Shown: one piece after another, positions 17,742 to 40,541 of the stretch | How the letters are laid out: every line of letters begins with the position of its first letter | Numbering within the stretch: position 1 is the stretch's first letter | The notes under the pieces: generated by a model | Seen by the model: the letters and a program-made list of their open reading frames with translations, nothing else | Told to the model about the DNA's origin: nothing | Database searches by the model: none | Made by a program: the position numbers and the translations under genes | Origin: Escherichia phage vB_EcoM_JNE01 | Sequence record: OR670491 | Direction: 5' to 3' (one strand) | DNA: 64,000 nt

Positions 17742-18869
17742 TTAGATGTTATCGCTAATTGGTTGTATTGGTGATTGCCATGCCAAAGTACAGATAATTT
17801 TAATTTGACCATAAGCACTGTTGTTTACAGAGTCGTTGAAAATACAAGAGATAATTTCATCTTTATCAGAAACAGTGTGGTTAACTTCGTTAACAATAAA
17901 ACGCATTTTACGGTTAATGTCAAAATAATCAACTGGAGCAATTACAGTACCCCCAATATCTTCTTGTGCTTCACCACCGAAACGAACAAACATTTCGTTA
18001 ACTGGTAAATCATAAGCTTGTTGTACATCAACATCGATATTAGTAACTAGGTATCCAGCAGGACATGTACCAATAACTAGAACGGCGTTAGTCCATGAAT
18101 GATCAATAGTGTTTACAATAACCAAGGAATCTTTACCTGGAGCACCTGTAGCACCTGGTAGACCTTGTTCACCTTGAATACCCTGTTTACCACGGAATTC
18201 AATACCAGTACTCCACTCTTTGGAAGGCGGGGTTGTGGTGTTTACAATATCAACATAGTATAGTTTACCATCTGTGGTATTATAGAAGCAGTAGTCTTCA
18301 GGAAGGTCAGTAATACTAGGGAATACATCACCAGTACTATCAATATGGAATCGTCCACGTAGACCTTGTGGGCCACGGAATTGTACACCATCACTCCAAG
18401 TTGCAGTTACTGATTGATAGAAATAAACTTTACCATCAGTTGTATTATAGAATGTATAGTTGTTTACGAGGTTAGTAGTTGGGAATGTATCACCAGAGCT
18501 ATCAATATGGAATGATTTACCAGCTTCACCAGTATCACCTTTACCAAATTCTACAACGTTCCAAGTACTATTACTGTCAGTTGCGGCGTTGGTTTTGAAA
18601 TATAGCTTACTAGTTCCGTTTGCAAGACTAAGATAGCACCAGCCAAGTTCTTCACCTACTCGGAATGATTCATCTGGGATTTCAAAACCTATCTCGTTTG
18701 GATAAAAGTTTTTACCATTTGTACCATCTCTACCAACAACAAGACCTAGATCTTGAATTGTGTTGTCAGCGTAAGTTACGATCAAATGTCCAGCAGAGTT
18801 GATAACTAAACTCTTTATGCCGGAATTATTGCATGAACTACTAGTCCCATTATTAAATGAAATTGTCAT
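17742..18869 (-). CDS. collagen-like repeat-containing fiber protein (375 aa)
   Basis: Start placed at MTISFNNG (AAAGGAAATAATA RBS) rather than the upstream ORF-track start; contains G-x-y triplet runs GPQGLRG and GKQGIQGEQGLPGATGAPGKD. Confidence 0.6.
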   Translation of the reverse strand: MTISFNNGTSSSCNNSGIKSLVINSAGHLIVTYADNTIQDLGLVVGRDGTNGKNFYPNEIGFEIPDESFRVGEELGWCYLSLANGTSKLYFKTNAATDSNSTWNVVEFGKGDTGEAGKSFHIDSSGDTFPTTNLVNNYTFYNTTDGKVYFYQSVTATWSDGVQFRGPQGLRGRFHIDSTGDVFPSITDLPEDYCFYNTTDGKLYYVDIVNTTTPPSKEWSTGIEFRGKQGIQGEQGLPGATGAPGKDSLVIVNTIDHSWTNAVLVIGTCPAGYLVTNIDVDVQQAYDLPVNEMFVRFGGEAQEDIGGTVIAPVDYFDINRKMRFIVNEVNHTVSDKDEIISCIFNDSVNNSAYGQIKIICTLAWQSPIQPISDNI

Positions 18870-20114: not shown

Positions 20115-21215
20115 ATGAATATTAACTATACAATTTATCGTAGTGATGGTACAGTTTATGCTACCATCCCTAATAACGTAATTCTTGGACCGAATCAACC
20201 TGGTTCGAACCCAGTACCTCTAAACTTGGTCGGTCGTAACAAAGTTGGTTACGGTCAAGCATGGAATGAAAACTTTTTACATTTAGTTGAGCATTTTAGT
20301 GGTAGTGTTGCTCCACGTGGTAACGTTAAAGGTCAAATCTGGTACAGAAACACTGGTGCTACTGGTGAGTTGCTAATTTCTCTTCTTGACAACGCCAGAC
20401 AACCAGAAGATACTGTTACGGAAGCAGAATGGGCTTCTATCCCAATGATTAGTGTTTTTAACACTATTCCTGATGGTGAAAACAGTGTTATGGGACGTAT
20501 GGTTTTAACCAGCAATGGTGATTCCCTCCGTGTCCTAATGAAAAACAAAGAATGGCGTGAAATCCAGACATCCAGACCAGAAAACAAAGAGTACTCAACT
20601 CTTTTAGATATCAACTATGATACTGGTAAGAAATATATCGAATTTACTCAAAGTGCCAGTACTAAACCACTAGCTTACTTTAATATGGGTGGTACTTCTC
20701 AAGTTGACGAGGATAACTGGACTACTTTCACTAATGGTACTGGTGTATTTGAATTTGGTAGCAACTATTTCTACGAATTAAAAATTATGATTCGTGAAGT
20801 AAGTGATGCAACTGGTTCAGTGGTGTCTTTACCATATAATTCCAAAACATTTATGATTAAAGGTCAATTCTATGTTGATAACCAAGGTACATTTGTTCCT
20901 GGTTCAGTTGGTGCAAGCTCTATCCCTGATCCACGTCGAATTACTCAACTAGAATCAATTAAAGACGTTATTACAAGCAGCCGCCCTAACTGGGATGTTA
21001 ATATTGTAATCAACGGTGTAGATTCAACGATTCCTAATCCAAATGGCGTTACTAAAGCTGATTATGAGAACTGGGTAATCAATTCATTGAACTCTAACAA
21101 AAACTTAGGCTTCAGGATTGATGGTTCAATCAGTAATCTGGTTGCTGGGGAATCTGTTAAGCTTCAGGCTTCAGTACTATTGAATATTACTGGTATCCCA
21201 CTAATTGGTGTATAA
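20115..21215 (+). CDS. hypothetical late protein (366 aa), probably tail/fiber-associated
   Basis: ORF with AGAGG RBS; N-terminus IYRSDGTVYATIPNNVILGPNQPGS...LVGRNKVGYGQAWNENF resembles fiber N-terminal regions; followed by terminator. Confidence 0.5.
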   Translation: MNINYTIYRSDGTVYATIPNNVILGPNQPGSNPVPLNLVGRNKVGYGQAWNENFLHLVEHFSGSVAPRGNVKGQIWYRNTGATGELLISLLDNARQPEDTVTEAEWASIPMISVFNTIPDGENSVMGRMVLTSNGDSLRVLMKNKEWREIQTSRPENKEYSTLLDINYDTGKKYIEFTQSASTKPLAYFNMGGTSQVDEDNWTTFTNGTGVFEFGSNYFYELKIMIREVSDATGSVVSLPYNSKTFMIKGQFYVDNQGTFVPGSVGASSIPDPRRITQLESIKDVITSSRPNWDVNIVINGVDSTIPNPNGVTKADYENWVINSLNSNKNLGFRIDGSISNLVAGESVKLQASVLLNITGIPLIGV

Positions 21216-21250
21216 AAGAAAAGGAGAGCATTAAGCTCTCCTTTTTTATT
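21216..21250. terminator. bidirectional intrinsic terminator
   Basis: AGGAGAGC-atta-GCTCTCCT hairpin then TTTTTTATT; between convergent genes. Confidence 0.7.
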
Positions 21251-21713
21251 AATAACGATAAGGTAAACTGTTGACAAACTGCTTACCTTGATTTATACTT
21301 TCCCACAATGAAAGGAAATCTTTCATCAAATTAGTGTTAAGTAAAGTGTTTTTAGCTCCTGGGTGAAGCGGCTTAGGCCACGAACCAATTTTTACCCATG
21401 CATATCCTGAACTCTCATGGTTTAGTATTGGAACAAATTCATTTTCAACAACAACAACAAAAGAATAATATCTGAACTTACCATTCTTAGTACAAAATAC
21501 GTCGAATGGAATAATATCAATAATATCAGGTATAGAATCACCCAACTCTTCTTTCATTTCACGATGTAAACCTTGAATCGGAGTTTCCTTATGTTCAAGC
21601 TTCCCACCAACAAACGCCCAGTTATTTGAATATGTACTTCTTTCAGATCGTAGATTCAACATCATATGACCAGTGCTTTTCGATAAAAATATAGCACCTA
21701 CTGCTTCATTCAT
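21249..21713 (-). CDS. Nudix hydrolase
   Basis: Contains complete Nudix box GGKLEHKETPIQGLHREMKEELG (Gx5Ex7REUxEExGU); AAGGAGG RBS. Confidence 0.8.
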   Translation of the reverse strand: MNEAVGAIFLSKSTGHMMLNLRSERSTYSNNWAFVGGKLEHKETPIQGLHREMKEELGDSIPDIIDIIPFDVFCTKNGKFRYYSFVVVVENEFVPILNHESSGYAWVKIGSWPKPLHPGAKNTLLNTNLMKDFLSLWESINQGKQFVNSLPYRY

Positions 21714-24556: not shown

Positions 24557-24597
24557 TGTTCGTCTCCAAAATAAATCGGGTATATCTCTATTTACCT

Positions 24598-24628
24598 TGT
24601 TGACAACAGCAAATAATGTGATATAATG
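24598..24628 (+). promoter_or_regulatory. sigma70-type early promoter for clpA-like gene
   Basis: TTGACA - 16 nt - TATAAT with TGn extended -10 (TGATATAAT), about 40 nt upstream of ATG 24668 which has AGGAGA RBS. Confidence 0.65.
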
Positions 24629-24667
24629 TTTATTAATTAGAGTGAGTTTAATCACATAGGAGAACAC

Positions 24668-26953
24668 ATGAACCTGACACAACTATTCAAGAAAAGCGAC
24701 GAACTGGCAACCTCTATGGGTCATACTTTTTTGACAATTGACCATGTGAGTGCTACAGTACTGACAGTTGATAGCATTGTTGACGTATTCAAGTCGATGG
24801 ACATTGACGCTGCAAAGCTTCATGCACGTTTGATTGATTATTTGAAAAACAACCCAGTTCCACCAGCACCAAAAAGTACTTTAGATGATGACTCGAACCG
24901 TACTTCACTTCTAGTGAATCGCGTGATGCAGGAACTGTCTAAAAAAGCAGTGATTGAACAGCTAAATCGTGATGATTTCTCCATTGATGCATATTTTGTT
25001 CTGTTTGAATGTTTGTCCTTCCCAAATACTGCATTCGAAGCAGTACTGAAAGAAGAAGGGGTTTCTTGTACTGAAGTAGCACGTACACTACAGAAACATG
25101 TAGAAGATATTGATACTGGCATCAACCTAAAAAGTATTAGCGACGAACCAACAGGGGACAAAAAAGTGGCTCAACAGCAACCAGCATCTAAGCAGAAAAG
25201 TTTGGAAGATTACACTACCAACCTTACCGCACTAGCGAAGGAAGGTAAACTCGACCCAATGATTGGTCGTCAAAAAGAGCTTGCTTCTCTCGTTGAGACT
25301 CTTGCTCGTAAAACTAAGAAGAACGCAATCCTAACTGGTGAAGCTGGCGTAGGTAAAACTCAAATCGTTGATGGTTTGGCACAAGCAATCGCAAATGGTG
25401 ATGTTCCAGAGCATCTAAAAGATGTGGAACTACTGTCTCTGAACGTTGGTGCACTAACTGCTGGTACAAAATACCGTGGTGAGTTTGAAGAACGCATTGA
25501 CAATCTTCTAAAAGAACTGAAGAAACGCGAAAACACCATCGTCTTCATCGATGAAATCCATATCATGGTTGGTGCTGGTTCTGCGAGCAACGGTTCAATG
25601 GATATGAGCAACATGCTCAAACCTGCTCTATCTCGTGGTGAGATTCGTGTCATCGGTGCAACCACTTATGACGAATATCGTAAAAACATCGAGAAAGACA
25701 GTGCTCTATCACGTCGTTTTATGAAAATTGATGTTGTTGAACCAACAGTTGAAGAAACTCGTGAAATTATCAACGGTCTACAAAAGACTTATGAGAAATT
25801 CCACAATGTAACCTTCACTAAAGGTGCGATGGATGCAGTTATTACACTAAGTGATAAGTTCCTGAAGAACAAACACTTCCCTGACAAAGCAATCGACCTA
25901 ATGGATGCGTCAGCAGCGAAGAAACGTTCTCGTGACAATGGTAATGAAATTACTGTTGGTGATATCCAAGAAGTTGTTGCTGGAATCGCTAACCTAGACC
26001 TGAACGTAGTTGCTTGTACTGAAAGTGAGCGTATGCGTAGTCTTCCTGATGCACTTCGTTCTCGTGTATATGGTCAAGAAGAAGCAGTAACTAAATTGGT
26101 TGATAACGTGATGGTTGCTCGTGCAGGTCTACGTGAATCTTCCAGTGTTCAGGGTGCATTCATGTTTGTTGGACCATCTGGTACTGGTAAAACTGAAATC
26201 ACCAAAGCGTTGGCTGATGCAACTGGTTCTAAACTGATTCGTTTCGATATGTCTGAGTTCTCTCAAGAACACACTGTGTCTAAACTGATTGGTTCACCTC
26301 CAGGTTATGTTGGTCACGATTCTGGTAATGGCCTACTACTAGACCAGATTGAGCAATACCCGAATGCAGTGCTGCTACTTGATGAAATCGAGAAAGCAGA
26401 TCGTAAAGTACTGTTGACTTTCCTTCAAGTTCTTGATGAAGGTCGTCTAACTGGTTCTCAAGGTAAGACTGTTTACTTCAACAACGTAACTGTTGTTATG
26501 ACAACTAACCTTGGTGCAGCAGACTCTACAAAACGTAGTATCGGTATGAGTGGTAGTGATACAGCACAGGATAAAGCGATTAAAGCTTTCCTACCGCCTG
26601 AATTCATCAACCGTATCGACAGTATCGTTACATTCAATGATTTGTCTTCTGATGCAATTCAGAGTATCATTGATAAATTCATGGGTAGTTTGAACGAACA
26701 AGTTAAAGACCGTGGTGTTAAGGTTTCTCTAACTAAAGCGGCTCGTGAATGGTTGGCGAAGAATGGCGTTAAGAACGGAATGGGTGCTCGTCCAATGAAA
26801 CGTACCATTGAACAGAATATCCGTGTTCCTCTGGCGAAAGAAATGCTTTGTGGTTCACTGGTTGATGGCGGTTCAGTAACATTTGATGTTATCAACGGTT
26901 CACTAGGCATTAAGCCAAAGCGTGTTAAAGCAGCAGATAAAGTAGAAGCGTAA
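24668..26953 (+). CDS. clpA: ClpA-type two-domain AAA+ unfoldase (761 aa)
   Basis: Two Walker A boxes (GEAGVGKTQ and GPSGTGKTE), Walker B IVFIDEIH and LLLDEIEKA, sensor/arginine-finger context GARPMKR, and KRSIGMSG loop aligning with the ClpA IGL ClpP-docking loop; collinear with E. coli ClpA over the full length. Confidence 0.9.
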   Translation: MNLTQLFKKSDELATSMGHTFLTIDHVSATVLTVDSIVDVFKSMDIDAAKLHARLIDYLKNNPVPPAPKSTLDDDSNRTSLLVNRVMQELSKKAVIEQLNRDDFSIDAYFVLFECLSFPNTAFEAVLKEEGVSCTEVARTLQKHVEDIDTGINLKSISDEPTGDKKVAQQQPASKQKSLEDYTTNLTALAKEGKLDPMIGRQKELASLVETLARKTKKNAILTGEAGVGKTQIVDGLAQAIANGDVPEHLKDVELLSLNVGALTAGTKYRGEFEERIDNLLKELKKRENTIVFIDEIHIMVGAGSASNGSMDMSNMLKPALSRGEIRVIGATTYDEYRKNIEKDSALSRRFMKIDVVEPTVEETREIINGLQKTYEKFHNVTFTKGAMDAVITLSDKFLKNKHFPDKAIDLMDASAAKKRSRDNGNEITVGDIQEVVAGIANLDLNVVACTESERMRSLPDALRSRVYGQEEAVTKLVDNVMVARAGLRESSSVQGAFMFVGPSGTGKTEITKALADATGSKLIRFDMSEFSQEHTVSKLIGSPPGYVGHDSGNGLLLDQIEQYPNAVLLLDEIEKADRKVLLTFLQVLDEGRLTGSQGKTVYFNNVTVVMTTNLGAADSTKRSIGMSGSDTAQDKAIKAFLPPEFINRIDSIVTFNDLSSDAIQSIIDKFMGSLNEQVKDRGVKVSLTKAAREWLAKNGVKNGMGARPMKRTIEQNIRVPLAKEMLCGSLVDGGSVTFDVINGSLGIKPKRVKAADKVEA

Positions 26954-26954
26954 A

Positions 26955-26990
26955 AAAGAAAAGGAGAGCATATGCTCTCCTTTTTTATTA
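26955..26990. terminator. bidirectional intrinsic terminator
   Basis: AGGAGAGCATATGCTCTCCT perfect palindrome then TTTTTTATT; same hairpin family as 223 and 21216. Confidence 0.75.
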
Positions 26991-29900
26991 ACTAAATTTT
27001 AATAAACGACCTACATCCAATCCACTAATTGTCAAACTGTCTGTATAAACACTCAATTCAATTGGCAAATAGTTCTCACCATATTTCTTGAACTTATCAA
27101 TGTTTCCTAAGTTCATGCCAGTAAATGTATATGTCTCATCTAGTTTGAAATCATGTTCCGCACTGTACATCGCACCACGTAGTAAGTTATTTGCATTACG
27201 TACTTGGACTTTCTCGTAACCCAATGAAATAACATCATTCAGTGAAGCTGCTGCACCCGATAGAACATTATTGGTAACACTGTATGGGCTTACCGATGAA
27301 GGTTGTGAAACATAGGTCATATGTTCATTCTCAATCATCGTAATGCTTGTCACAGTACTACCAACAGCGGTAATATAAGCATTTGATACTAGTGGGTAGT
27401 TATACACCCAAACCCCGTCAGAATTACGTGTAGGTTCTAGTAAACCAGCATCGTATTCAAACACGTTAATCTCAACGCTATCAACCATTCTTGTTCTTAC
27501 TAGTTCACTTAGAACACCAGAACCAGTAATAGGTAGATTATAGCCGTTATCGATTGTAACCCCGTCCACAACGAAAATTTCATTTGACACTAACCATAGG
27601 TCAATATCACTTGAAGTTATTCCGTCATTATATGAACCGTTATCTAATGTCGTGTCATAAAATACTTCGTATTTCATTGCATCAATTGCATAGTTTCGGT
27701 TTTCTTCGTATAATTTAACTCCATTAACAACAAATTCAGGATCTGCGAATGTTCTAATACGAACTAGGTTCAGTGCTAGAGGCATTGCATGTTCACCAGC
27801 TTTGTTAGTAGTGATGTTATCAAACATCAGTACTGCACCAGTTGAATCTAGTAATTCAACAGTACCATTGGCTGTATTATTTCGTACAGTGAATAGTTTA
27901 GGTGTAGTTCCTGTTTTGATTTTAGATACACTCAAGATGGTTTCCCATGTATCGTTTTGGTATCTTACAAAATCCTCACCATCAGTGGTGAAAATCATAA
28001 CTTTATCCCCATTAGCTAATGAATTATCTACTAACTTCATTTGACTTTGAGTTTGCACTGATTTCACTTGATAGAAGTATTTTTCATCATACTTATCTGT
28101 TGTTGCACTAATATCGTTAGATACTTTTGCGTATGAAGGAATACTAATAATTGCTTGTCCATAGTTGTAAGGATTGATTAGAACCATACCTTCAACATGT
28201 AAGCGACTATTGTCACGTAGCTGAACTTGAGCAGCAGTATCAAAGCCATATCCATCAATCGTTACTCTGATTTGACCGATATCACGTTCCGCTGGGTTCA
28301 CATCACGAATATCAATGATATAAGGATCAACCTCATCGTCTTGTACTGACCATTTCATGGTAGCTGTTTGTGATTCTAGTGCTAGGTTATCGAAAGAGTT
28401 CATATCATTATAATATTTCGCACCTTCAATACCGTCTAGTATTTGTTTATAATCAGAATACATTGGATTGTTAACATCTTGCGGTAAATCATCCAAATTG
28501 ATTTCAGCTAAACTTACAGCCTGACCAGTTGTGATGTAGATATCTTCGATGAAATCGTCAATACTTTGATTACGTGGAATACTAACAAACGTATCATTTA
28601 CTTTAGCATATACATATTTTCTAGGAATCATAGTGAATGCATAGTTTTGTACAGAATTATTACTTAGTACTTCTTCGGCAATTTCATAATTATTGGAAGC
28701 ATCCTTGTTAAACAAGTTACGCATACCAGTTAATACATGAACTGCGTCGGTGTAATATCTTCTTACTTCAATTACAACTTCTTCACCATCTTCATCTTGA
28801 ATTGTTTGTTCTTCCATGAACTTATACATGTAAACGCCGTATTCAACTTCTAGCTCAATTCTAACTTCCTCGTCACTGAACGCAGGATTTGCAGTTTTAA
28901 TCAAATCAACATATTTCTTATACAATTCACTGGATACTTCATAATAACCTAAGTTATAATCAGTACTGCTTGCGAAACCAAACGGTAGACGAGTGCTTGG
29001 GTTGTCAGTGAAGGTCACTCCACTAAAACCACATCCAACTTCATCATGAATAACTTCATTACTAGCACCAGTGTACAGCTTCAATCGGTTAGAAAGAGTG
29101 TTGTACTGAACATAATGTTTAACATCGTCAAACACTTCGTTATTTGTCGCTTCTGCATAAATGCGGTGAAGATTTTGGGTAAATTCTTCAGTTAGTGCTA
29201 AGTTATCAGAATTTTCTTTATACCAATCGTTAATTGCTTTAGCAGCACCCATTGTAATATTCATACTTGGATATAGAATTTGCATTTGGTATGCAACTTG
29301 TAAATCTAAAGTTTCTGAATTATTTTCAGGGAAGGTATAAATGAATCTTTGTAACTCAAAATCACTGACTACATCTTTTTCGTTACTTTGATACTTGTTG
29401 TTAACTGCATTTAGTACATCTAGGCTTGCCAAATCTTCATTTGGTTTACACTGAATGTTGTCATAATGCATAATCACATCAATTTCTTGGAAACGTCTAT
29501 TTGGTGTTACAAAATCGCTTGGCAATGAACCAATTTGTTCCCATCTCTGAGTAACATCACTAAACTGTGCGTATTCATAGTCCCAAATATCTTTTTCAGT
29601 TTTAACCCAAGAACCATCAACAAGAATATAGCCATTTGGATCGAGGTCGTTGCATAATCCTTTGATAACATCATCATCTGATGTTTTCTGTTCAATCTGA
29701 GAACGAATCTTAGTTCTGTACGGTTTAACTTCTTCAAAGTACTCGACAATTTGATTAATCAAGTTATCGTTTGAATAGTTCTGTACAAGAGATTGCTCTA
29801 GACCAATAATATAAATGTAAGATGTTTTGAATACCCAGTCCACAACACCCTGTTCAACGTGAACATACTTAACCATATCAAATACTATTGTACTTTGATG

Positions 29901-32900
29901 TAAATCGAAAGAGTTTTTCAATAAAGCTAGTGCTTTACGAACGTTAATCTCTCTATTACTCAATGAACCACTTTCAGTTCTCACAGTATAATCAGCATAC
30001 AACATATCGTTCAATTCAATTGTACTGTTTTCACGTCCAATTGCTTTCCAATATATAGATTCACGTGATTCTGCTTTAATGTAAAGAGTCCATATACCAT
30101 CACTATCAGTAACACGAATTACATCACCGATTTGGTAGTTTTTAGCATTTGCATCATCTAAACTGTCTTCTTGTGTATAAGAAGTTGTGCTACTGTATCC
30201 TTCATCATACCAGTCGGCAAGATTCCAGTACTGAGTCATGTCTAGAGACGTTCCCAATGATTCTTCAAAGTCAGCGTGCTTGATCATTTTGTGTTGACCT
30301 TCACCACGGTTCTCTAATGTGATGGTAACGATGCTACCAGCACTAGATGGGCTATTCATTAGATGAATATAACCGTTAGCGTCAATGTGAACAAAATAAA
30401 CAGAGCTTGTGGTAAGTGGGGTCGGTAATGAGCCGCTTGTACTAACCAGTACTGCATCGTTTTCTTTGAACTTATCACTTTCTGGTGCAATTACTAACTC
30501 ACTATTGTAAGAAAGAACACGGAAAGCAACTTCATTTGGGTTAACTTCAGTTGTTTTAACGTTAAACACTTCAGCCATCACAACTGTATTAGTTGTCATG
30601 TTTTGTGAACGGTAAAAATCATTTGCACTGTCTACAAAAGTACGGCGAGCTTCAATAACATCTTGGAACCATGTTTTATTGGAACCTAAACCATTATCAA
30701 CGGCTGGATATAGCAAATCAATCACACTACCAGACTCGGTTGTTTCTTGGCCTCTTAAAGAGTTCCACATTGAATCCCAAATTGCACTATTGAAGTTATA
30801 ACTGTCACCTTCTTTACATAGTTGATATTGGTCATGTTTGACAACTTCAGTGTTATCCATATAATATGAAATAGTTAGAACACTTGTGTCATCATTCACT
30901 TCAAATTGCATATTGCTTAGAATAAATGAGCTTTCATTGATTGGTGCGAACCAAGGAATGTTTAATTGTGCTGGTTCTTCAATGATTCTCGCAATATCAG
31001 TACAAGACTTAGTTCTGGTATGTAGTGGTGGTACATAAATGGTATCACGTACCCAGAAATAGTATTTTGTAACATAAGAATCAGTTGCACTATCATATTC
31101 CAAAAATGCACTGTAGTTATCTTCCAAAGCAGTACCGCTCGGTAGATACATAGTGTTATTTTTGTTTTTCTTAGCCATATCTTTGCAATATGTTTCCCAG
31201 TTGTATGGTTCAACAGGTGAACATACCCATTCTAGGACATCAATCTTGCTATGTGGTAACAATTTACCCCAGTTGTAGCGTTTGTATTCATTTGTTGCTT
31301 CAACATCCACAACACCGTCTGCATCAAAGATTGGACGAGTATAATCCAAGTAGTATGCAGTACTTGTGTTCCACCAAACCTGACCAACTTTATCAGCACC
31401 CCATGCTTGCAGCAATTCACCATTGCTATTGTACTGAGCAGGGTCAACTGGAGTTGTGTAGTTCACGTTTTGCATTGCCACACCAGGGATAACACCGTTA
31501 ATCGGGTCAAACACGTTAAGGTATAGTGCAGTTACGTTTGTACGGTCATCATAAGTTGTTGGGCGGTCAAACAAGGTACTTTCTGGTGCTTTATAGCTAT
31601 ATTTCTTATCCATATACGCCTGACGGTCTGCGTCAGTACTGAAACGACTCTTATAACGATATAGTTTAGGTTGAGTATCAACATCAGTAAATGTAATGTC
31701 GATTGATGTATCAAACGGAACTACCATCACTTTAGGATCTGTACCAGCAGTGTAATATTGGCTTTCAACAGTTAATGAATCAGGCATAAAGTTTGTTTCA
31801 TCAACGAAATAATAGTATTCACCATCTACCAGTGGAATGTTATCGCTCAAAGTTACTTTACAGAATTGTTCTGCATATGGGTCGTTATTTTCGATAGGTG
31901 TAATACTTAACATCTTAACTTCAGTATCAACTAAATCAAAAATATCCCATAAACCATCAACATCTTTATACATCCATACAGATTCTGGGATTTCACCAGT
32001 TTTGTTCATATATTGAATACGGTCATCGTATGCAGTACTGAATTCTTTAGTGATATATGAAATTTCATCTAAAGAAACTGGGCCAATGTCTGGTAATTGA
32101 ATATTCTCACTTCTTCCACTACGCATAGGGAATGAGAATTTACCATTTGGACGTGTAACCCAACGTGGGTCTGCACCTTGTTCACCAAAGTAAACGATGT
32201 TATTACCGTTTCCATTTGATGTTGCATGAATATCAAAAGAAACTAGTTGTGGTTGTTGTTTAAACTGATCATTGATTAGTTTAAATTGTAGGTTTTTCTT
32301 ACCATCTACGTTACCGTAAGTACCGATTTTAAACGCCCATTCTTGAAGTGCTTTATACTCTTCAGTATCGTAAGACTTAGATACGCGTAATACTTTCTCT
32401 AGTACTTGATTCGAACCTTTATCATGAATAAAACCTTTATAGAAATCTACACGGTTAGCATCGCTACCAATCATACGTTGTAGATAATCACGGGTTTGAT
32501 ATCCAATAAGGTGGTTCGATAGTTCTTGTAATTGAATATCACTAACAGGAGTTTCGCTGTTGTAATACAATTCAAAATCAGTAACTAATTTTTCAAAGGA
32601 AGGTAATGTACCAGCTTCTAGAATGATGAATCCAGGAGCTTGTAGTCTACCAGTCCATGAACCAGTAATGTAACCATACATTTTAATTAGTTCTTGTACG
32701 GAACCGAATGTTGGTTGATAGATATAATCACCGAAGATAGTCTGGTCATCGAAAATAACAGCATGTTCATATGAGCATAGACTCAAACGGATTAGTGCCA
32801 TACGTTTATCCGAATCATCAGTTGTTCTTACAGTGAAGACGTTACCAATGCGAGATGTTTCAATCTCATATTGACGAATACCTTGGTTTTGATCATCAAG

Positions 32901-35900
32901 TAGTGACCATACACCACCGCTATTCTGTGCAATTGATTGTACTGAACCAAAATCTGCACCAAATTTAGCATTTGCTGAACTTGGAGTACAAGAAATGTAT
33001 TCACCACTCACAAGAGTACTTTGACTCCATGTTACGAAATCTTTAGCAATAGTATTCCAGTCTTGTTGAGCACCAGAATCGTTTACATCTTCAAAAATCC
33101 AACCATGTTCTTTTAGATACTCACCATAACCACAAATGAAAGTATATACTTCCTGATAAGTGTTGAATACTTTACCATATTCAATTTCACTTTCATTTTT
33201 CCATTCATTGTAATGAGCAACATTACGGGTTCCAATTTTTAGTGATACTTTCTTGCCGTTCTTAACTGGTAATTTATATTTGAATTTAGCACCAACCAAA
33301 TCATAACCATCAATTTGGTATGCACTACCAGTCCATGTAATTTTCACTGCACTAATTACTTCGTCACGAATATTACTGGAACGAACTAGTCCGATAGTTT
33401 GGTTTTCTTGTGAAATCAGACCAAAAGATTTTGCTGTAAATGTTAGTTGGTCAGCTTTAGTGAAGCCACCAATTTTATGTCCCACGTTAACGTAAGAAGA
33501 ACGAACAACATCACCATATTTTGTAGTAATATTTTTATTTTGATAAGCCAAATAGTCACTAACAAACATTTGATAGCCAACGGTTCTGGTATTATTTTCA
33601 CCATGAACTACTGTAGCACTGTCAAAGTTAATTCGTTTACGGGTTTCACCATAAAGGAACTGTGGTTGACCAGTATATACAGAATTTAGACTGTTATTAC
33701 GGGTATCCCAGTAATAGTTTGCGAACTGTGCTGGTTTAGCTTTATACAATAGAAGCATTTGGTCGTAAGCGAACATAGCAGTGTTCATGTAAGTGAATTC
33801 CATGTCACCCATGTCACCATATGACCACGGTTCAGCACGATGATTCAATGAACCACTAACTAGACCTAGAACTTCAGGAGCGATGTACTCAATCTCACAA
33901 ATATCGATACCAGTGCTTGTCTTAGAGCCTGTTTTTGTAATTTTGAACGGTTGTACACCGAAACGTTTGTATTTGTCGTATTGACCTTTACGTGCACCAT
34001 ATAGGATTGTACCAGTACTGCTATCACCAATGGTTCCGTCAACTGACCATAGGCCACTTGGAACATAATCACCATTTTCGTTTAGTACTAGAGCTTCATA
34101 TACAGCAACTGTATCACTTTCACGTTCACCAACCTGTACATATGTTGGTTCATACTCTTGGTTCCACCATGATGGACGTTGAGAGAATCCTAGCATTTCC
34201 CACGGATGGGTTGCTGGACGATATGTACCGTACTGATCAGTGTAAATTGCACGCCATGAACCACGAGCAGGAATATCAGATACATGACCATCAACTACAT
34301 AATTGGTTCCAGTATAGTTCCATGTTTTCCAGTTACTTTGGACATATGCATTAGTACTGTTACTAATACCGTTGGTAGCAGTAAAGTTAATGTATCCACG
34401 CAATAGTAGAGTTTGTTTCTCTGCCATCGTATAATCAGTTGTCTGGAAATACGGGGTTGGGAATAAATCTTCACTACTTAGTACTGGTTGATAATCTACA
34501 TCTTTGAATACGTTATCAATACTATCAAAAATACGAGATTCCAATTCAAACACAACATCATCCATTTTATCAACACCGTTAATTGCACGATATGATTTGG
34601 AAATAATACCAGTGTGGCTGATATTATAGAAGCTTGATTTGCTACCTGGATTTAGGTATGTAGCTTTTTGTGGTGCATAAGCTTGTAGAATACCTAAGAA
34701 TTGTGGTGTTGGTGGAACAAATGTACGAATAAAACCAGAAGTGCTTGCTACGTTGTCATAATAGAATGGGAATGAACTATCACGTCCCATGTTAATAGCA
34801 CTAAAAATTGCATCTACAATATTAGAAGCACTATTAGCAACAAAGCCACTTGGATCTTCGTCATACATACGAATCATTTGTGTATTGAATTTGTTAATGA
34901 AGCGGAAGTATTCTGCTTGCATAAACATGATAGCTTCAAACAAATCGATATCTTCGTTTGCAGTGTGAGCCATCAATGGAAGCATTGAAGCTTCGTTTTG
35001 AATAATGTGAGTACCGACACCATTATCAACCAACCCAGCAGCTAGACGTTCTTCGTAATCGTTGAAGTCATCAGATGAACCACTTGTAATATTCTTTTGA
35101 ATAATATCCTTGAAATGTAGGGTGTACATTCCTTGGTTGATATAAATGATATTACCGTTGTATGGGTTATTTTGTAAGTTGATTGGAATTTCATATGCAC
35201 CAAGATTCTTATCAGGAGTAATAGTACTGCTATAAGTTCTGATTTGAATAACTGAATCTTCATCTAGTGCAACAGTACTATCGATTGTAATACTTTGAAC
35301 TTGATTTTTGGACACGGTTTTGCTGAAGCTGTTGGTAACTACACCATCAACTGTTAGCTCAATAATGTCATCAGAATTATCAAGTACTTTCTGTGCCAAT
35401 TCAAATGTATGATTGTATTTTACACTTTGAACACCGTCGCCAGTGATAACGTGCCAATCAAGATATGTTTCTTTTTCTGCTTTGTAATATTGGTAAGTGC
35501 GATCCACTTCGATTACATAAGCATACATTCCATCAACTGGTGAACGGAAACTTTCTAGATCGTAAACAGTACTGAATACACGATACATGTCAGTACGGGT
35601 AACTTCTAGAGTTTGTTTAACGAACTGTTTGGAATATTCAGCAGAACGAACCCAGTCAGTTTTTAGGTGCATAGAATTGTCTTCACCGATGACGTTAAAA
35701 TAATACAAACCGTCAATCTCAACTTCTTCACCTAAATGATCATATGTATAACGTTCGGACTGTAGAAAGTTCTCATATGTATAATAGTTGTAATCACCTA
35801 ATTCGATGTTATAACCATATACACCATCAGTTGGATAGTTGTAGTTGATTTTAAATCCAAATAGAGAAGAACCTTTGAAAGTACTGGATGGATAAACGGC

Positions 35901-36998
35901 ACTATCGTTTAGTTTATTACCATTGCGATCATATAATTGGAATTGTGGGAAAAAGTTAACTGTAGGTTTGGCTTGTGCTTGAACCCAATGTGCACCATCC
36001 CAATACATTGAACTATTACCATAGGTATTACCTTTAGTAATTAGAACCACGTCACCTTTAATTGGTTCACCACTTGGACGGTCTTCAGTTTCTTCTTCAG
36101 GATCTAATGCTAGACCATATACGCGTGTACCATCTTGTAATTTTTTAATGTATACTTTATAAATTCGGTTATTCTCACCACTGTTACCAATACTGGTGAA
36201 GAGAATGCGTTGACCATCTTGTGGGATAATCCCGTCAATACGAATACCGGAGTTCACATCTTTTTGAACCATATCTTCTGGTTTGATGGTATCAGAGTAC
36301 AAATCAACTGTACCACGGAATTTAGTACCGTAGTTTAGAAGTTCGATATCTTTATTGAACTCGATAATAGGTGCTTTAGCACGAACGAAACGCTCATCCT
36401 GCATTAGATCTTGGGTTAGTACTGTACCATCCCCTAATGTTTCACCTAGAGTGTACCAGAAGTTTTGTAGGGACCATGTGTTGCCGTTAGTAGCATTACG
36501 TTCCATTACAACATAGTCTGGAGTTTGAATATTGTATTCGTTTTGTGTATCCCAAAGATATGAACTGTAGTTGTTCATTTTGTTTGGGTTAATAGCAGGT
36601 GTCCATGCGTAAAACTTACCAGCAAATAGGCGACTTTCATTATCAGTTAGTGCACCGTAATGATTCATGTAGCCAACGAGGTCATCATAAAATTGAATTG
36701 AACGAATACTGCGGTCATCATTTCTTGAGACGTAAGCAGTGGATAACTGATACAGTTGACGTGCAACTGTTGATTCAGCTAGGAAGATGTTACCTTCAGC
36801 GGCGGGAGAACCCATATCACCAATATAGCCGTCAACCAATTCGTTTTCAGCCGGATTAAACCATTGTTGAATGACATCATCACTTACCTTCTGAATGTCT
36901 TCTAGACCTTGCATCCATTCAGGTAATCTTTTGATGAAAAGTTTTTTCTGTACTGCTTCAGCCGTTTGTGTAGGTTGAAACTTAAAATTATTAGTCAT
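26988..36998 (-). CDS. giant virion structural protein (3336 aa), baseplate/fiber-associated (possibly gp7-position)
   Basis: Uninterrupted ORF of ~10 kb; start placed at second ATG (MTNNFKF) which has TGGAG RBS; located directly downstream of gp6-like gene in baseplate operon; Tyr/Asn/Asp-rich beta-type composition. Confidence 0.7.
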   Translation of the reverse strand: MTNNFKFQPTQTAEAVQKKLFIKRLPEWMQGLEDIQKVSDDVIQQWFNPAENELVDGYIGDMGSPAAEGNIFLAESTVARQLYQLSTAYVSRNDDRSIRSIQFYDDLVGYMNHYGALTDNESRLFAGKFYAWTPAINPNKMNNYSSYLWDTQNEYNIQTPDYVVMERNATNGNTWSLQNFWYTLGETLGDGTVLTQDLMQDERFVRAKAPIIEFNKDIELLNYGTKFRGTVDLYSDTIKPEDMVQKDVNSGIRIDGIIPQDGQRILFTSIGNSGENNRIYKVYIKKLQDGTRVYGLALDPEEETEDRPSGEPIKGDVVLITKGNTYGNSSMYWDGAHWVQAQAKPTVNFFPQFQLYDRNGNKLNDSAVYPSSTFKGSSLFGFKINYNYPTDGVYGYNIELGDYNYYTYENFLQSERYTYDHLGEEVEIDGLYYFNVIGEDNSMHLKTDWVRSAEYSKQFVKQTLEVTRTDMYRVFSTVYDLESFRSPVDGMYAYVIEVDRTYQYYKAEKETYLDWHVITGDGVQSVKYNHTFELAQKVLDNSDDIIELTVDGVVTNSFSKTVSKNQVQSITIDSTVALDEDSVIQIRTYSSTITPDKNLGAYEIPINLQNNPYNGNIIYINQGMYTLHFKDIIQKNITSGSSDDFNDYEERLAAGLVDNGVGTHIIQNEASMLPLMAHTANEDIDLFEAIMFMQAEYFRFINKFNTQMIRMYDEDPSGFVANSASNIVDAIFSAINMGRDSSFPFYYDNVASTSGFIRTFVPPTPQFLGILQAYAPQKATYLNPGSKSSFYNISHTGIISKSYRAINGVDKMDDVVFELESRIFDSIDNVFKDVDYQPVLSSEDLFPTPYFQTTDYTMAEKQTLLLRGYINFTATNGISNSTNAYVQSNWKTWNYTGTNYVVDGHVSDIPARGSWRAIYTDQYGTYRPATHPWEMLGFSQRPSWWNQEYEPTYVQVGERESDTVAVYEALVLNENGDYVPSGLWSVDGTIGDSSTGTILYGARKGQYDKYKRFGVQPFKITKTGSKTSTGIDICEIEYIAPEVLGLVSGSLNHRAEPWSYGDMGDMEFTYMNTAMFAYDQMLLLYKAKPAQFANYYWDTRNNSLNSVYTGQPQFLYGETRKRINFDSATVVHGENNTRTVGYQMFVSDYLAYQNKNITTKYGDVVRSSYVNVGHKIGGFTKADQLTFTAKSFGLISQENQTIGLVRSSNIRDEVISAVKITWTGSAYQIDGYDLVGAKFKYKLPVKNGKKVSLKIGTRNVAHYNEWKNESEIEYGKVFNTYQEVYTFICGYGEYLKEHGWIFEDVNDSGAQQDWNTIAKDFVTWSQSTLVSGEYISCTPSSANAKFGADFGSVQSIAQNSGGVWSLLDDQNQGIRQYEIETSRIGNVFTVRTTDDSDKRMALIRLSLCSYEHAVIFDDQTIFGDYIYQPTFGSVQELIKMYGYITGSWTGRLQAPGFIILEAGTLPSFEKLVTDFELYYNSETPVSDIQLQELSNHLIGYQTRDYLQRMIGSDANRVDFYKGFIHDKGSNQVLEKVLRVSKSYDTEEYKALQEWAFKIGTYGNVDGKKNLQFKLINDQFKQQPQLVSFDIHATSNGNGNNIVYFGEQGADPRWVTRPNGKFSFPMRSGRSENIQLPDIGPVSLDEISYITKEFSTAYDDRIQYMNKTGEIPESVWMYKDVDGLWDIFDLVDTEVKMLSITPIENNDPYAEQFCKVTLSDNIPLVDGEYYYFVDETNFMPDSLTVESQYYTAGTDPKVMVVPFDTSIDITFTDVDTQPKLYRYKSRFSTDADRQAYMDKKYSYKAPESTLFDRPTTYDDRTNVTALYLNVFDPINGVIPGVAMQNVNYTTPVDPAQYNSNGELLQAWGADKVGQVWWNTSTAYYLDYTRPIFDADGVVDVEATNEYKRYNWGKLLPHSKIDVLEWVCSPVEPYNWETYCKDMAKKNKNNTMYLPSGTALEDNYSAFLEYDSATDSYVTKYYFWVRDTIYVPPLHTRTKSCTDIARIIEEPAQLNIPWFAPINESSFILSNMQFEVNDDTSVLTISYYMDNTEVVKHDQYQLCKEGDSYNFNSAIWDSMWNSLRGQETTESGSVIDLLYPAVDNGLGSNKTWFQDVIEARRTFVDSANDFYRSQNMTTNTVVMAEVFNVKTTEVNPNEVAFRVLSYNSELVIAPESDKFKENDAVLVSTSGSLPTPLTTSSVYFVHIDANGYIHLMNSPSSAGSIVTITLENRGEGQHKMIKHADFEESLGTSLDMTQYWNLADWYDEGYSSTTSYTQEDSLDDANAKNYQIGDVIRVTDSDGIWTLYIKAESRESIYWKAIGRENSTIELNDMLYADYTVRTESGSLSNREINVRKALALLKNSFDLHQSTIVFDMVKYVHVEQGVVDWVFKTSYIYIIGLEQSLVQNYSNDNLINQIVEYFEEVKPYRTKIRSQIEQKTSDDDVIKGLCNDLDPNGYILVDGSWVKTEKDIWDYEYAQFSDVTQRWEQIGSLPSDFVTPNRRFQEIDVIMHYDNIQCKPNEDLASLDVLNAVNNKYQSNEKDVVSDFELQRFIYTFPENNSETLDLQVAYQMQILYPSMNITMGAAKAINDWYKENSDNLALTEEFTQNLHRIYAEATNNEVFDDVKHYVQYNTLSNRLKLYTGASNEVIHDEVGCGFSGVTFTDNPSTRLPFGFASSTDYNLGYYEVSSELYKKYVDLIKTANPAFSDEEVRIELEVEYGVYMYKFMEEQTIQDEDGEEVVIEVRRYYTDAVHVLTGMRNLFNKDASNNYEIAEEVLSNNSVQNYAFTMIPRKYVYAKVNDTFVSIPRNQSIDDFIEDIYITTGQAVSLAEINLDDLPQDVNNPMYSDYKQILDGIEGAKYYNDMNSFDNLALESQTATMKWSVQDDEVDPYIIDIRDVNPAERDIGQIRVTIDGYGFDTAAQVQLRDNSRLHVEGMVLINPYNYGQAIISIPSYAKVSNDISATTDKYDEKYFYQVKSVQTQSQMKLVDNSLANGDKVMIFTTDGEDFVRYQNDTWETILSVSKIKTGTTPKLFTVRNNTANGTVELLDSTGAVLMFDNITTNKAGEHAMPLALNLVRIRTFADPEFVVNGVKLYEENRNYAIDAMKYEVFYDTTLDNGSYNDGITSSDIDLWLVSNEIFVVDGVTIDNGYNLPITGSGVLSELVRTRMVDSVEINVFEYDAGLLEPTRNSDGVWVYNYPLVSNAYITAVGSTVTSITMIENEHMTYVSQPSSVSPYSVTNNVLSGAAASLNDVISLGYEKVQVRNANNLLRGAMYSAEHDFKLDETYTFTGMNLGNIDKFKKYGENYLPIELSVYTDSLTISGLDVGRLLKFS

Positions 36999-37032
36999 TG
37001 TTGGACTCCATATAATTCGTTCATTCATTTGA

Positions 37033-40000: not shown

Positions 40001-40541
40001 CATTGATATCAATACGCTTAACTGGGTTACCAAATTGGTTAGTACTGACGAATGAGCTATTCATTACAAGAATAAAGTTCTCATACCAGTTTGAGTCCAT
40101 TGGGTCATTCCAACGGATGATTTTATCTTTTAATGATTCGTTAAAACTGTTACGTACATCTTGGTTAGTTTTGATTTCAGTTAGTTTTGCTGTTGCACGA
40201 CCTGGATATGAACGGCGTGGAGAATAAGAAATCATTTTAGCAAGTTTTAGTACGGATGCACGACGAGTTGCAGTGTCTAGGAAGTTTTCACGTGTATTAA
40301 GATCCATACGAAACGCTAAGTTCTGCCCCAGCATAGATATTGTATCTAGAATAAAAATAAACTGGTCGTTCTCAATCCAGTCGTTGAAAGAATCTGGATA
40401 TGTAGTACGGAGATAGTCTATCATACTTTGACGAATGGTATCGTAATCAAATGCCGTGAGATTAATTTTATAGAAACTTTCATACACTTGAGTCCAATCC
40501 TCACCACTATATAAATTAGACTGTCTTTTTTGTTGTGACAT
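37080..40541 (-). CDS. gp6-like baseplate wedge protein (1153 aa)
   Basis: N-terminal region ...DYDTIRQSMIDYLRTTYPDSFNDWIENDQFIFILDTISMLGQNLAFRMDLNTRENFLDTATRRASVLKLAKMISYSP... parallels the N-terminal domain of T4 gp6 / baseplate J family; position between gp25-like and giant protein. Confidence 0.5.
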   Translation of the reverse strand: MSQQKRQSNLYSGEDWTQVYESFYKINLTAFDYDTIRQSMIDYLRTTYPDSFNDWIENDQFIFILDTISMLGQNLAFRMDLNTRENFLDTATRRASVLKLAKMISYSPRRSYPGRATAKLTEIKTNQDVRNSFNESLKDKIIRWNDPMDSNWYENFILVMNSSFVSTNQFGNPVKRIDINGVSRQLYRMNTLPMTAPSMPFSATVNGESMTFEVVNPDITSVGVEERHPEPQEQKYIVYQNDGNGFSSPNTGFFVYFVQGTLTYQDYQYNVREENRIQDVNVDNINEIDVWVQEINEDGIVRTKWTKVPSMESIAYNSVDRQLKTIFAITTRDNDQITIKFPDSRSGVVPRGTFRVWYRVSNGETYNIKTSEIQNKSVKYNYRTKSQSNYESSTLDVRFTLQYESDRAQSAETIEQIKARAPQMYYTQNRFVNGEDYNIAPLSLGNTVLKSKAINRIYSGQSRFIDINDPTGKYQNTDVFSDDGSMYKENNTFNTSLLLPTTKTNASIAVDNIQPLIGENAVIQRYQAYPANTVGIEVQQKWSPEYNSNYATNTYGRILGASGTVYGNYEVGTLIKFANTGITVWASIVNVLDNGYYVLSTSISSTMQAQSYILPYRTRFNSVEVQAIASMLDKKTDFVIIHDNATTSWVPIEISTNEETVQYNGVTTQVVVNVKYTAETWEFNANGVEYIFVGGDKVRFYFVSSKKITDISSGTVQSDKIEILSSNTTSSSNAGLSSNIDFQIYDTIQQENGYLDGSRVVITSKTVDSNGIPLEPNKFNEIVPTWTGEDALKYGGILVFQENDDFTISVLSLPNDTFTLLDTSWAYTVDQALLETNSYKRHEFQRNNEIRSTTLSGLYSKGSGFLVAFKVDGKYYFIEQTVGNNNDRLNQLISNMTTSDDASAVSPEVAFYRALNNMGTAVDDDQKLDYYGYIDVTSQYTVKTDARTSVDFHWKHYAPDDNRIDPSRTNLIDMYVLTNSYKTEVDVWLKNGATSSLPKPPTSVELKDIFKEVEEKIVISDSIIWHSAEYLPLFGNSAVEDYQADFKVVKLPNSTMSDDEVRQNVISLTNEYFNVDNWDFGESFYYTDLCTYIHSQLGRHISTIVIVAKNPNSKFGSLFEIPSRSDQIFLSTASVDNVQIVNSLAKSNINIGS

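Follow-up and report, generated by a model that had tools for sequence, protein, structure and literature searches.

ClpA is conserved in most Rak2-like phages (Attai et al. 2018). The same gene occupies the same position in about 60 deposited members of this group, for example as gp581, labelled "ClpA-like", in 121Q. It is a core gene of the Rak2-like jumbo phages, already known and routinely annotated, and the finding of one more example matters little in itself: dozens of jumbo-phage genomes on deposit already have the gene labelled ClpA-like, and the literature has noted it. Full-text literature searches returned no functional or expression study of a phage ClpA, and no Asteriusvirus transcriptome was found in the literature search. 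The useful lead is a complete, dispersed set of ClpA-, ClpP- and ClpS-like genes with a diverged interface between unfoldase and peptidase, which in Asteriusvirus carry host-type promoters. If the three products work together, they would form an uncharacterised virus-encoded ATP-dependent protease system in bacteria.

The DNA analysed here, called the window, is a stretch of 64,000 nucleotides from Escherichia phage vB_EcoM_JNE01, an Asteriusvirus jumbo phage; it is 99.3% identical to Escherichia phage Turkey5. A first-pass annotation of the window had presented its ClpA homologue as novel, a claim which, by that annotation's own reckoning, falls on the close homologues that are routine in related phages.

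Identity and domains of the protein

The open reading frame at 24668..26953 (+ strand, ATG start) encodes 761 amino acids, and the ORF list, profile matches and structure matches all describe a ClpA-like class-I Hsp100 unfoldase. The NCBIfam ClpA model, TIGR02639, aligned from end to end (755.5 bits, residues 2-740 on model positions 4-733/734), whereas the NCBIfam ClpB model gave 638 bits in two stretches only. In the PDB search the best solved structures were those of E. coli ClpA, 1KSF and 6W1Z, at 605 bits in one stretch (residues 16-739 on 19-733 of 1KSF), with ClpB and ClpC structures at about 500 bits in two stretches each. Since the ClpB and ClpC alignments are split in two, the protein has no coiled-coil middle domain. 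By alignment, then, it is classed as a ClpA-type two-ring AAA+ unfoldase and not as a ClpB-type protein, which bears out the first-pass description of a two-ring protein collinear with ClpA. As the scores lie below the NCBIfam equivalog cut-offs (755.5 against 993.15 for TIGR02639, and 654.9 against 1350 for NF008263), it is to be called ClpA-like and not a curated ClpA equivalog.

Pfam matches were obtained to AAA (D1), AAA_lid_9, AAA_2 (D2) and ClpB_D2-small. The D1 ATPase core (25337..25561, +) contains Walker A GEAGVGKT at residues 224-231, the pore loop GTKYRG at 266-271 and Walker B FIDEIH at 293-298; the corresponding elements of the D2 core (26171..26398, +) are GPSGTGKT at 502-509, PPGYVG at 544-549 and LLLDEIEKA at 569-577. 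Walker A and B, pore-loop, arginine and sensor motifs of both AAA+ modules are intact in the sequence, and K230, T231, D295, E296, K508, T509, D572, E573, Y547, R349, R350 and R708 are invariant in an alignment of 49 sequences.

The N-terminal domain (residues 1-150; 24668..25117, +) is divergent. Pfam Clp_N matched residues 11-59 only, with 19.6 bits, just below the cut-off of 20.7, and a precomputed PF02861 match is present on some ClpA-like members of the phage clade. The AF2 model places eight helices within residues 3-148, with pLDDT values of 78-89 for residues 1-60 and 120-140 and of 52-67 for residues 61-110; the predicted helices are consistent with two Clp_N repeats. The domain is followed by a disordered linker, residues 155-176.

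Transcription signals

The clpA gene is the lone plus-strand gene in a region whose tail and baseplate genes are on the minus strand. Of these, a tail completion gene resembling T4 gp15 lies upstream together with a structural gene; downstream come the gene for a giant virion protein of 3346 amino acids (26988..37028), convergent with clpA, and then a gp6-like baseplate wedge gene. The first-pass annotation had placed clpA alone between the neck and baseplate operons; its isolation and the baseplate side hold, and "neck" is loosely right for a region with a gp15-like tail completion gene.

A sigma70-type promoter precedes the gene at 24600..24627 (+). It has the -35 hexamer TTGACA (24600-24605), a 16-nt spacer and the extended -10 element TGaTATAAT (24619-24627), and scores 12/12 with the TG. 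Transcription is predicted to start near 24634. The Shine-Dalgarno sequence AGGAG (24658..24662, +) lies 5 nt before the ATG, and AGGAG or AGGA is kept in an alignment of the upstream regions of related phages. Both the consensus promoter and the separate sigma70 unit inside the late structural region are therefore present as first described. Four perfect sigma70 sites of this kind occur in the window, against 0.29 expected. The extended -10 sequence TGnTATAAT showed no overall enrichment, either in the window or around clpP, and so gives no ground for a promoter class specific to the phage. A search of the window found no TATAAATA near clpA on the plus strand, and TATAAATA was not enriched in the window.

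The region between clpA and its upstream neighbour also contains a TAAATA motif on the minus strand (24588..24595), about 33 nt upstream of the divergent structural gene (start 24556). This is a candidate late promoter. An ATAAATA late motif has been described for CBB and GAP32 (PMC5259590), and the counterpart of the motif at 24588-24595 is kept as ATAAATA in the aligned sequences of GAP32 and XaC1. The features taken to mark an early unit of T4-like phages, transcribed by host RNA polymerase, were a consensus sigma70 -35, an extended -10 and a coding strand free of late motifs; clpA has all three and is a predicted early gene.

An intrinsic terminator hairpin, bidirectional, lies at 26959..26984. 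Its stem strands GGAGAGC and GCTCTCC enclose the loop ATAT (26963-26980), with an A-run before and a T-run after. It sits in a 34-nt gap into which the stop codons of clpA and of the 3346-aa minus-strand ORF converge, and for that reason it is shared by the two genes and not private. The terminator ascribed to clpA in the first-pass annotation thus exists; its exclusive assignment to clpA does not stand. The hairpin is kept in four other phages of several genera with compensatory changes in the stem, and the annotation of phage G17 lists it as a terminator. Equivalent clpA promoters are found in 121Q, Muenster, GAP32 and XaC1, again four phages from several genera.

ClpP and ClpS-like partners

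No clpP or clpS was detected when the window was searched by tblastn with the ClpP and ClpS proteins of E. coli and the GAP32 ClpS-like protein, in agreement with the first-pass annotation. It had gone on to propose the use of host ClpP, and that step is not borne out, because the Turkey5 genome encodes both a ClpP with an intact Ser-His-Asp triad and a ClpS-like protein. In Turkey5 coordinates clpP lies at 74424-75119, about 90 kb upstream of clpA, and the gene for the ClpS-like protein (Pfam ClpS, 19.2 bits) at 249084-249629, about 85 kb downstream. The clpA, clpP and clpS-like genes are thus about 85-90 kb apart and form no operon.

Phage and E. coli ClpP share 34% identity. The phage protein is extended at its C-terminus by about 20 amino acids and aligns over its full length to solved ClpPs with E about 1e-36. 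The 121Q protein, gp464, matches Pfam CLP_protease with 141 bits, and the Ser-His-Asp triad is retained in all eight phage ClpPs compared. Relative to E. coli, the core Rak2-like ClpPs carry Y60T, F82S/N/C and L114G, at positions which we take to be those of the E. coli docking pocket. The ClpS-like protein is more difficult to recognise: E. coli ClpS as query missed the Asteriusvirus gene, and the GAP32 homologue, which matches Pfam ClpS with 41.8 bits, found it. The Asteriusvirus proteins are 35-39% identical to that of GAP32. The phage ClpS-like protein has an extra N-terminal region of about 70 amino acids and is without the classical N-degron pocket residues.

Across the phage clade the three genes are found together, the counts in phages of Escherichia, Klebsiella and Erwinia being 32, 11 and 8 for ClpA-like, 33, 10 and 8 for ClpP-like and 33, 10 and 8 for ClpS-like proteins. 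In Asteriusvirus each is served by a sigma70-type promoter, scoring 12/12 for clpA and IF3-clpS and 11/12 for clpP; those of clpA and clpP have the TG and share a 16-nt spacer. Only in Asteriusvirus does clpP have a sigma70 promoter to itself.

Two other candidate partners were rejected. An annotation as "HslV-like" near clpP has no Pfam match and only E = 0.82 to HslV in the PDB, and a second "ClpP-like" ORF gave a weak match to the ClpP fold, its 121Q homologue gp473 beginning with a hydrophobic segment. A single ClpP peptide has been reported from CBB virions by mass spectrometry. A separate prohead protease of the T4 gp21 type is present, so ClpP is not needed for head maturation. In the phAPEC6 virion proteome the ClpA homologue gp246c is absent, and the products of its neighbours, gp245 and gp248, were detected.

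The docking loop

The tripeptide IGM at residues 625-627 (26540..26548, +) aligns with the ClpP-docking IGL of E. coli ClpA, so that the KRSIGMSG loop is where the first-pass annotation had put it, in a protein for which the ClpA profile also outscores that of ClpB. By alignment this is the [LIV]-G-[FL] loop, with Met in the third position and not Leu or Phe. The segment RSIGMSG (residues 623-629) has pLDDT below 50 in the AF2 model, as expected of a flexible loop. The loop insertion is retained in every member of the phage clade; ClpB-type disaggregases are not known to have it. The tripeptide itself varies across the clade, as IGM, LGM, IGV, IGA, IGG, MNM or MSM.

The IGM tip itself looks compatible with host ClpP. 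In the alignments, the tripeptide of the loop departs from the canonical form, and so does the pocket of the phage ClpP. A comparison across lineages of the tripeptide with the pocket residues of ClpP gave no clean pattern within the core clade; in Ettore and Atu_ph07, a canonical IGF is paired with largely canonical ClpP pocket residues.

Possible roles of the phage ClpA

The most economical reading is of a phage-encoded Clp set made before the late genes. We give an even chance to clpA being the unfoldase of such a proteolysis set, inherited as part of the core of the Rak2-like jumbo phages. Host RNA polymerase would transcribe clpA ahead of the late genes, and hexamers of the ClpA-like protein would unfold particular proteins and feed the chains into the chamber of a ClpP, most likely the phage's own and possibly that of the host too. 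The ClpS-like protein may bias the choice of substrate, for which host proteins, phage regulators and misassembled giant virion proteins are candidates. Docking of the ClpA-like protein onto phage ClpP is uncertain, given the drifted pocket residues and the variable tripeptide.

A stronger form of the phage Clp set can be put forward only tentatively. It would be a private machine, orthogonal to that of the host, consisting of the ClpA-like protein, a ClpP with a remodelled pocket (T60, S82, G114) and C-terminal extension, and an adaptor of the ClpS fold whose N-terminal domain is new and whose pocket is not of the N-degron type, all made by host RNA polymerase before the late genes. Loop and pocket would have co-diverged, leaving a protease independent of host ClpAP with substrates of its own, for example host defence or takeover targets.

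Alternatively, the phage ClpA hexamer could dock onto host ClpP and redirect proteolysis, for example against defence proteins. IGM is a conservative variant of IGL in a loop whose flanks are ClpA-like, the altered pocket of the phage ClpP (T60, S82, G114) might not suit that loop, and the sigma70 promoter would give early expression, while host ClpP is abundant. However, the phage does have a clpP, and a triad-intact ClpP and a ClpS-like protein accompany clpA throughout the clade. A loop that varies to IGA, IGG and MNM over six host genera (Escherichia, Klebsiella, Cronobacter, Erwinia, Yersinia and Xanthomonas) is also hard to square with a fit to conserved host ClpP pockets, and we regard diversion of the host peptidase as unlikely. 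Use of host ClpP and possession of a phage Clp set are not mutually exclusive.

E. coli ClpA can act alone on RepA, and the phage protein might likewise serve as a chaperone or remodeller independent of ClpP. The neighbouring 3346-aa virion protein is a candidate client, as are intermediates of the tail and baseplate, or the protein may contribute to general proteostasis during the burst of giant-virion synthesis. The strictly conserved site between tail-completion and baseplate genes, beside a giant structural protein, fits such a function, as does the DnaJ gene that adjoins clpA in Atu_ph07, and a tripeptide so loosely conserved (IGG, IGA, MNM, MSM) points to weak selection on docking to ClpP. 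Iyer et al. (2021) have proposed a function as translocase or in virion assembly. Against this, clpA is on the opposite strand from the structural genes and has a host-type promoter instead of a late one, and its product was not found in phAPEC6 virions. The loop insertion for ClpP docking is kept in every member of the clade, and the ClpP and ClpS-like partners are always present. A purely ClpP-independent function is accordingly considered doubtful.

Origin of the gene

The encoded protein is 100% identical to the deposited vB_EcoM_JNE01 protein, 99.9% to that of Turkey5, 88% to that of 121Q and 61% to that of GAP32. Identities within the phage clade are at least 52%, with a sharp drop to bacterial ClpA, the closest cellular proteins being 41-42% identical, and in a neighbour-joining tree the phage ClpA-like proteins form a clade separate from bacterial ClpA. 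Asteriusvirus, Alcyoneusvirus, Mimasvirus and XaC1 share the syntenic locus, and clpA was at the same locus in every genus examined. The first-pass annotation had suggested a host-derived moron. A recently captured host clpA with no phage-specific role can draw on the promoter and terminator of the gene and on its GC content, slightly above that of the flanks (0.415-0.419 against about 0.34-0.39), but is highly improbable given a monophyletic phage clade, 42% identity to E. coli ClpA with no bacterium closer, and a locus, promoter and terminator conserved in related genera, where patchy presence and a recent cellular donor would mark such a capture.

Comparison with known systems

The ClpA-like proteins of the Rak2-like phages (121Q gp581, phAPEC6 gp246c, GAP32_229, Klebsiella phage Muenster gp308 and that of vB_EcoM_JNE01) are products of the same gene, with shared flanks, promoter type and terminator, and the protein described here does not differ from the others in substance. 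E. coli ClpA, of the ClpAP/ClpS system (PDB 1KSF, 6W1Z, 7UIV), is collinear over about 730 residues with 42% identity. Both proteins have D1 and D2 behind an N-terminal domain, which in the phage protein is a candidate Clp_N domain, and are without an M-domain. They have in common Walker A and B, the pore loops with KYR and GYVG, the arginine and sensor residues and an I-G-hydrophobic docking tip. They differ in the tip itself, IGM in the phage and IGL in E. coli, and in the divergent N-domain of the phage protein; compared to the E. coli system, the phage partner genes are dispersed and divergent. The two AAA+ cores, D1 and D2, and the D2-small domain also occur in ClpB/Hsp104 and ClpC, from which the phage protein differs in having no middle domain. 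Its NCBIfam score is 755 bits for ClpA and 638 for ClpB, and in the PDB search ClpB reached about 500 bits where ClpA reached 605.

The PA5oct-like phages and Atu_ph07 are likewise jumbo phages with ClpA, ClpP and ClpS. With about 40% identity to the window protein, their ClpAs resemble it no more closely than E. coli ClpA does, and in the tree they lie on the side of the bacterial sequences. Their loops have the canonical IGF, the ClpP pocket residues are largely canonical, entirely so in Atu_ph07, and the identity of their ClpPs to that of E. coli is 49-63%. By these comparisons their Clp sets look like a separate or less diverged lineage.

The ClpA-type protein

The clpA-like ORF of 761 aa (24668..26953, plus strand, ATG start) is preceded by AGGAG 5 nt 5' of its ATG, and the product is 100% identical to the deposited vB_EcoM_JNE01 protein. 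Pfam domains follow in the order AAA (D1), AAA_lid_9, AAA_2 (D2) and ClpB_D2-small. The NCBIfam ClpA model, TIGR02639, aligned end to end (residues 2-740 on positions 4-733 of 734) with 755 bits, short of the 993 set as curated equivalog cut-off, against 638 bits in two pieces for the ClpB model. Among solved structures E. coli ClpA (1KSF, 6W1Z, 7UIV) ranked top with 605 bits in a single stretch, compared with about 500 bits for ClpB and ClpC, whose alignments were split in two, ie the protein has no middle domain. Identity to E. coli ClpA was 42% over 731 residues by BLASTP. On these comparisons the assignment to the ClpA type is clear, and the two-ring architecture described in the first-pass annotation was confirmed.

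Walker A and B motifs were located at aa 224 (GEAGVGKT) and aa 293 (FIDEIH) in D1, and at aa 502 (GPSGTGKT) and aa 569 (LLLDEIEKA) in D2. Pore loops (KYR and GYVG) are present as well, together with the arginine and sensor residues, and all were invariant in a 49-sequence alignment. The ClpP-docking loop is retained, as had been proposed, with IGM at aa 625-627 aligned with IGL, the tripeptide by which E. coli ClpA docks into ClpP. The AlphaFold2 model (mean pLDDT 78.8) has eight N-terminal helices, a disordered linker at aa 155-176 and a flexible loop at aa 623-629. Its top fold matches were ClpA and ClpC chains of ClpAP/ClpCP complexes, with a target TM-score of up to 0.87 and 46-48% identity for ClpA.

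Transcription unit

The sigma70-type promoter, TTGACA-16-TGaTATAAT, lies at 24600-24627 on the plus strand and matches the consensus at all 12 positions, as first claimed. It is kept in each of five genomes compared, with 10-12 of 12 matches and a TG extension in four. Perfect sites of this type number four in the window, against 0.29 expected by chance. The other three (TTGACA-N16/17-TATAAT at 30838-30865, plus; 38620-38647, minus; 54446-54474, plus) may have arisen by chance or may act as internal or antisense promoters; one is antisense inside the 3346-aa ORF that follows clpA and one is sense inside the gp6-like ORF.

The terminator originally regarded as the gene's own is present as a GC-rich hairpin with an A-run on one side and a T-run on the other (26959-26984), but it sits between the convergent stop codons of the clpA-like gene (plus) and the 3346-aa ORF (minus), and is therefore bidirectional and shared. 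The hairpin is conserved across relatives, with compensatory stem changes. The description of a separate, host-type transcription unit was upheld. On the minus strand, a TAAATA-containing motif at 24588-24595, about 33 nt upstream of the structural gene start (24556), resembles the late-promoter motif reported for CBB and GAP32 (PMC5259590), and is kept as ATAAATA in GAP32 and XaC1. The arrangement fits late-type and sigma70-type promoters diverging from one 111-bp spacer, which would represent two temporal classes.

Gene order and origin

The region shares 99.3% identity with Escherichia phage Turkey5, and about 80% with 121Q, PBECO4 and phAPEC6; these are Asteriusvirus jumbo phages with genomes of about 350 kb. 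Homologs of the clpA-like gene were found in about 60 Rak2-like phage records, and gene order was identical in 121Q, G17, phAPEC6, Klebsiella phage Muenster, Cronobacter phage GAP32 and Xanthomonas phage XaC1. On one side are a NUDIX hydrolase, a gp15-like tail completion gene and a structural gene, all minus; the ClpA-like gene (plus) is central; on the other side are a structural protein of about 3300 aa and then the gp6-like baseplate wedge, both minus. Conservation of ClpA in most Rak2-like phages has been noted in print (Attai et al. 2018). ClpA and ClpX have been listed among jumbo-phage AAA+ chaperones (Iyer et al. 2021), and the gene is already known at annotation level. Close homologs being routine in related phages, the novelty first suggested is not sustained.

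Several neighbouring genes were recorded. The NUDIX/MutT hydrolase gene (21249-21713, minus) lies within the tail structural module, at the same place in all relatives examined. The 3346-aa ORF (26988-37028, minus) encodes about 3300 aa in all relatives, and its phAPEC6 homolog, gp245 (382 kDa), was detected in virions. An ORF of 254 aa (40546-41310, minus) is inserted between the gp6-like wedge gene (37080-40541) and a gp25-like gene (41380-41775); in 121Q the corresponding gp584 carries the annotation of an HNH endonuclease 'associated with group I intron'.

When 5.8 billion proteins were searched, the matches formed an unbroken phage-type clade with identities falling from 100% to 52%, followed by a sharp drop to bacterial ClpAs at 41-42%. 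Against E. coli ClpA these bacterial sequences show 56-65% identity, and no cellular ClpA is therefore closer to the phage protein than that of E. coli. In a neighbour-joining tree the core Rak2-like clade stood apart from bacterial ClpAs, with the ClpAs of PA5oct-like phages and Atu_ph07 on the bacterial side. The GC content of the gene is raised only slightly. The gene is an old one, vertically inherited among phages; the identity gap and the separate clade rule out the recent host-derived moron initially envisaged.

Probable phage-encoded partners

Neither clpP nor clpS occurs inside the window, as had been noted. With E. coli ClpP as tblastn query, 121Q gp464 was recovered (Pfam CLP_protease, 141 bits), which the 121Q record labels ClpP-like amid DNA-metabolism genes. 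In Turkey5, which supplies the genome outside the window, clpP occupies 74424-75119, some 90 kb away from clpA, and its product aligned full-length with solved ClpPs (E about 1e-36). The Ser-His-Asp triad was kept in all eight phage ClpPs compared. These phages also carry a separate T4 gp21-type prohead protease, so that ClpP is not needed as head protease, contrary to some automated 'head maturation protease' labels. The 121Q neighbourhood (208000-221000) is of metabolic or host-takeover style, not a head module, and includes a DnaJ-like zinc-finger protein, Ser/Thr phosphatase, DNA ligase, dCMP deaminase, Sir2-like deacetylase and NUDIX genes. Within Turkey5 segment 60000-100000, a second ClpP-fold ORF (18141-18752 of the segment) scored only 22 bits with CLP_protease; its 121Q homolog, gp473, has a hydrophobic segment at its start. 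The label 'ATP-dependent protease subunit / HslV-like' at 20142-20744 of that segment looks unsupported, with no Pfam match and E = 0.82 to HslV in PDB.

E. coli ClpS as query matched PA5oct-like phages, Atu_ph07, GAP32, fHe-Yen9 and Kaldavass. The GAP32 protein, which matches Pfam ClpS with 41.8 bits, in turn retrieved homologs in 71 records, 33 of them Escherichia phages. In Turkey5 the ClpS-like gene (249084-249629) directly follows an IF3-like translation initiation factor gene; the two form a tight pair with a 13 nt gap (4571-5630 of segment 244000-254000) behind a 12/12 sigma70 consensus promoter (4498-4526), and the pairing is also present in GAP32. The protein has the ClpS core and, ahead of it, about 70 additional residues at the N-terminus. 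Classical N-degron pocket residues are replaced (N34D, D36P, M40A and H66N in Turkey5), and therefore the classical N-degron pathway should not be assumed.

Records per genus agree closely: 32 ClpA-like, 33 ClpP-like and 33 ClpS-like in Escherichia phages, 11, 10 and 10 in Klebsiella phages, and eight of each in Erwinia phages. In Asteriusvirus a sigma70-type promoter precedes each of the three genes (clpA, TTGACA-16-gTGaTATAAT; clpP, TAGACA-16-gTGaTATAAT; IF3-clpS, TTGACA-17-TATAAT). No promoter of its own was found for clpP in the other genera, where it is probably co-transcribed with upstream genes.

Proposed function and docking interface

The most economical reading of the sequence data is that the clpA-like product serves as unfoldase in a Clp protease set encoded by the phage, and that it would be made by host RNA polymerase independently of the surrounding late genes. 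The ClpA homolog gp246c was missing from the phAPEC6 virion proteome, in which the neighbours gp245 and gp248 were present, and this argues against a virion component. A full-text literature search returned no report of expression, binding or phenotype for phage clpA-, clpP- or clpS-like genes.

The predicted ClpA-ClpP docking interface is not canonical. Bacterial ClpAs are uniformly L/M-G-F, whereas in the same alignment the phage clade has IGM, LGM, MGM, IGV, IGA, IGG, MNM, MSM, IGF or VGF. At what we take to be the docking-pocket residues of E. coli ClpP (L23, L48, F49, Y60, Y62, F82, I90, M92, F112, L114 and L189), core Rak2-like ClpPs carry Y60T/V, F82S/N/C/Y, L114G and F49W/Y, and their C-termini share a conserved extension, about 20 aa long. 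The ClpPs of the PA5oct-like phages and Atu_ph07 are 49% and 63% identical, respectively, to E. coli ClpP. Their pocket residues are largely canonical in the former and fully canonical in the latter, and both pair with IGF-type ClpAs. This pattern fits co-divergence of a private interface, and equally well a relaxed or lost ClpA-ClpP interaction. The partnership with host ClpP that was first proposed seems less likely. Docking of the window's IGM tip onto host ClpP is still plausible. The key step, from the lack of clpP and clpS in the window, fails since both are encoded elsewhere in the genome, as seen in Turkey5. What survives of that interpretation is the ClpA type, the docking loop and the separate host-type unit; origin, novelty and the step to host ClpP do not.

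The modest new lead is that three Clp genes are conserved as a set, each behind a sigma70-type promoter in Asteriusvirus, and that their interface has diverged.
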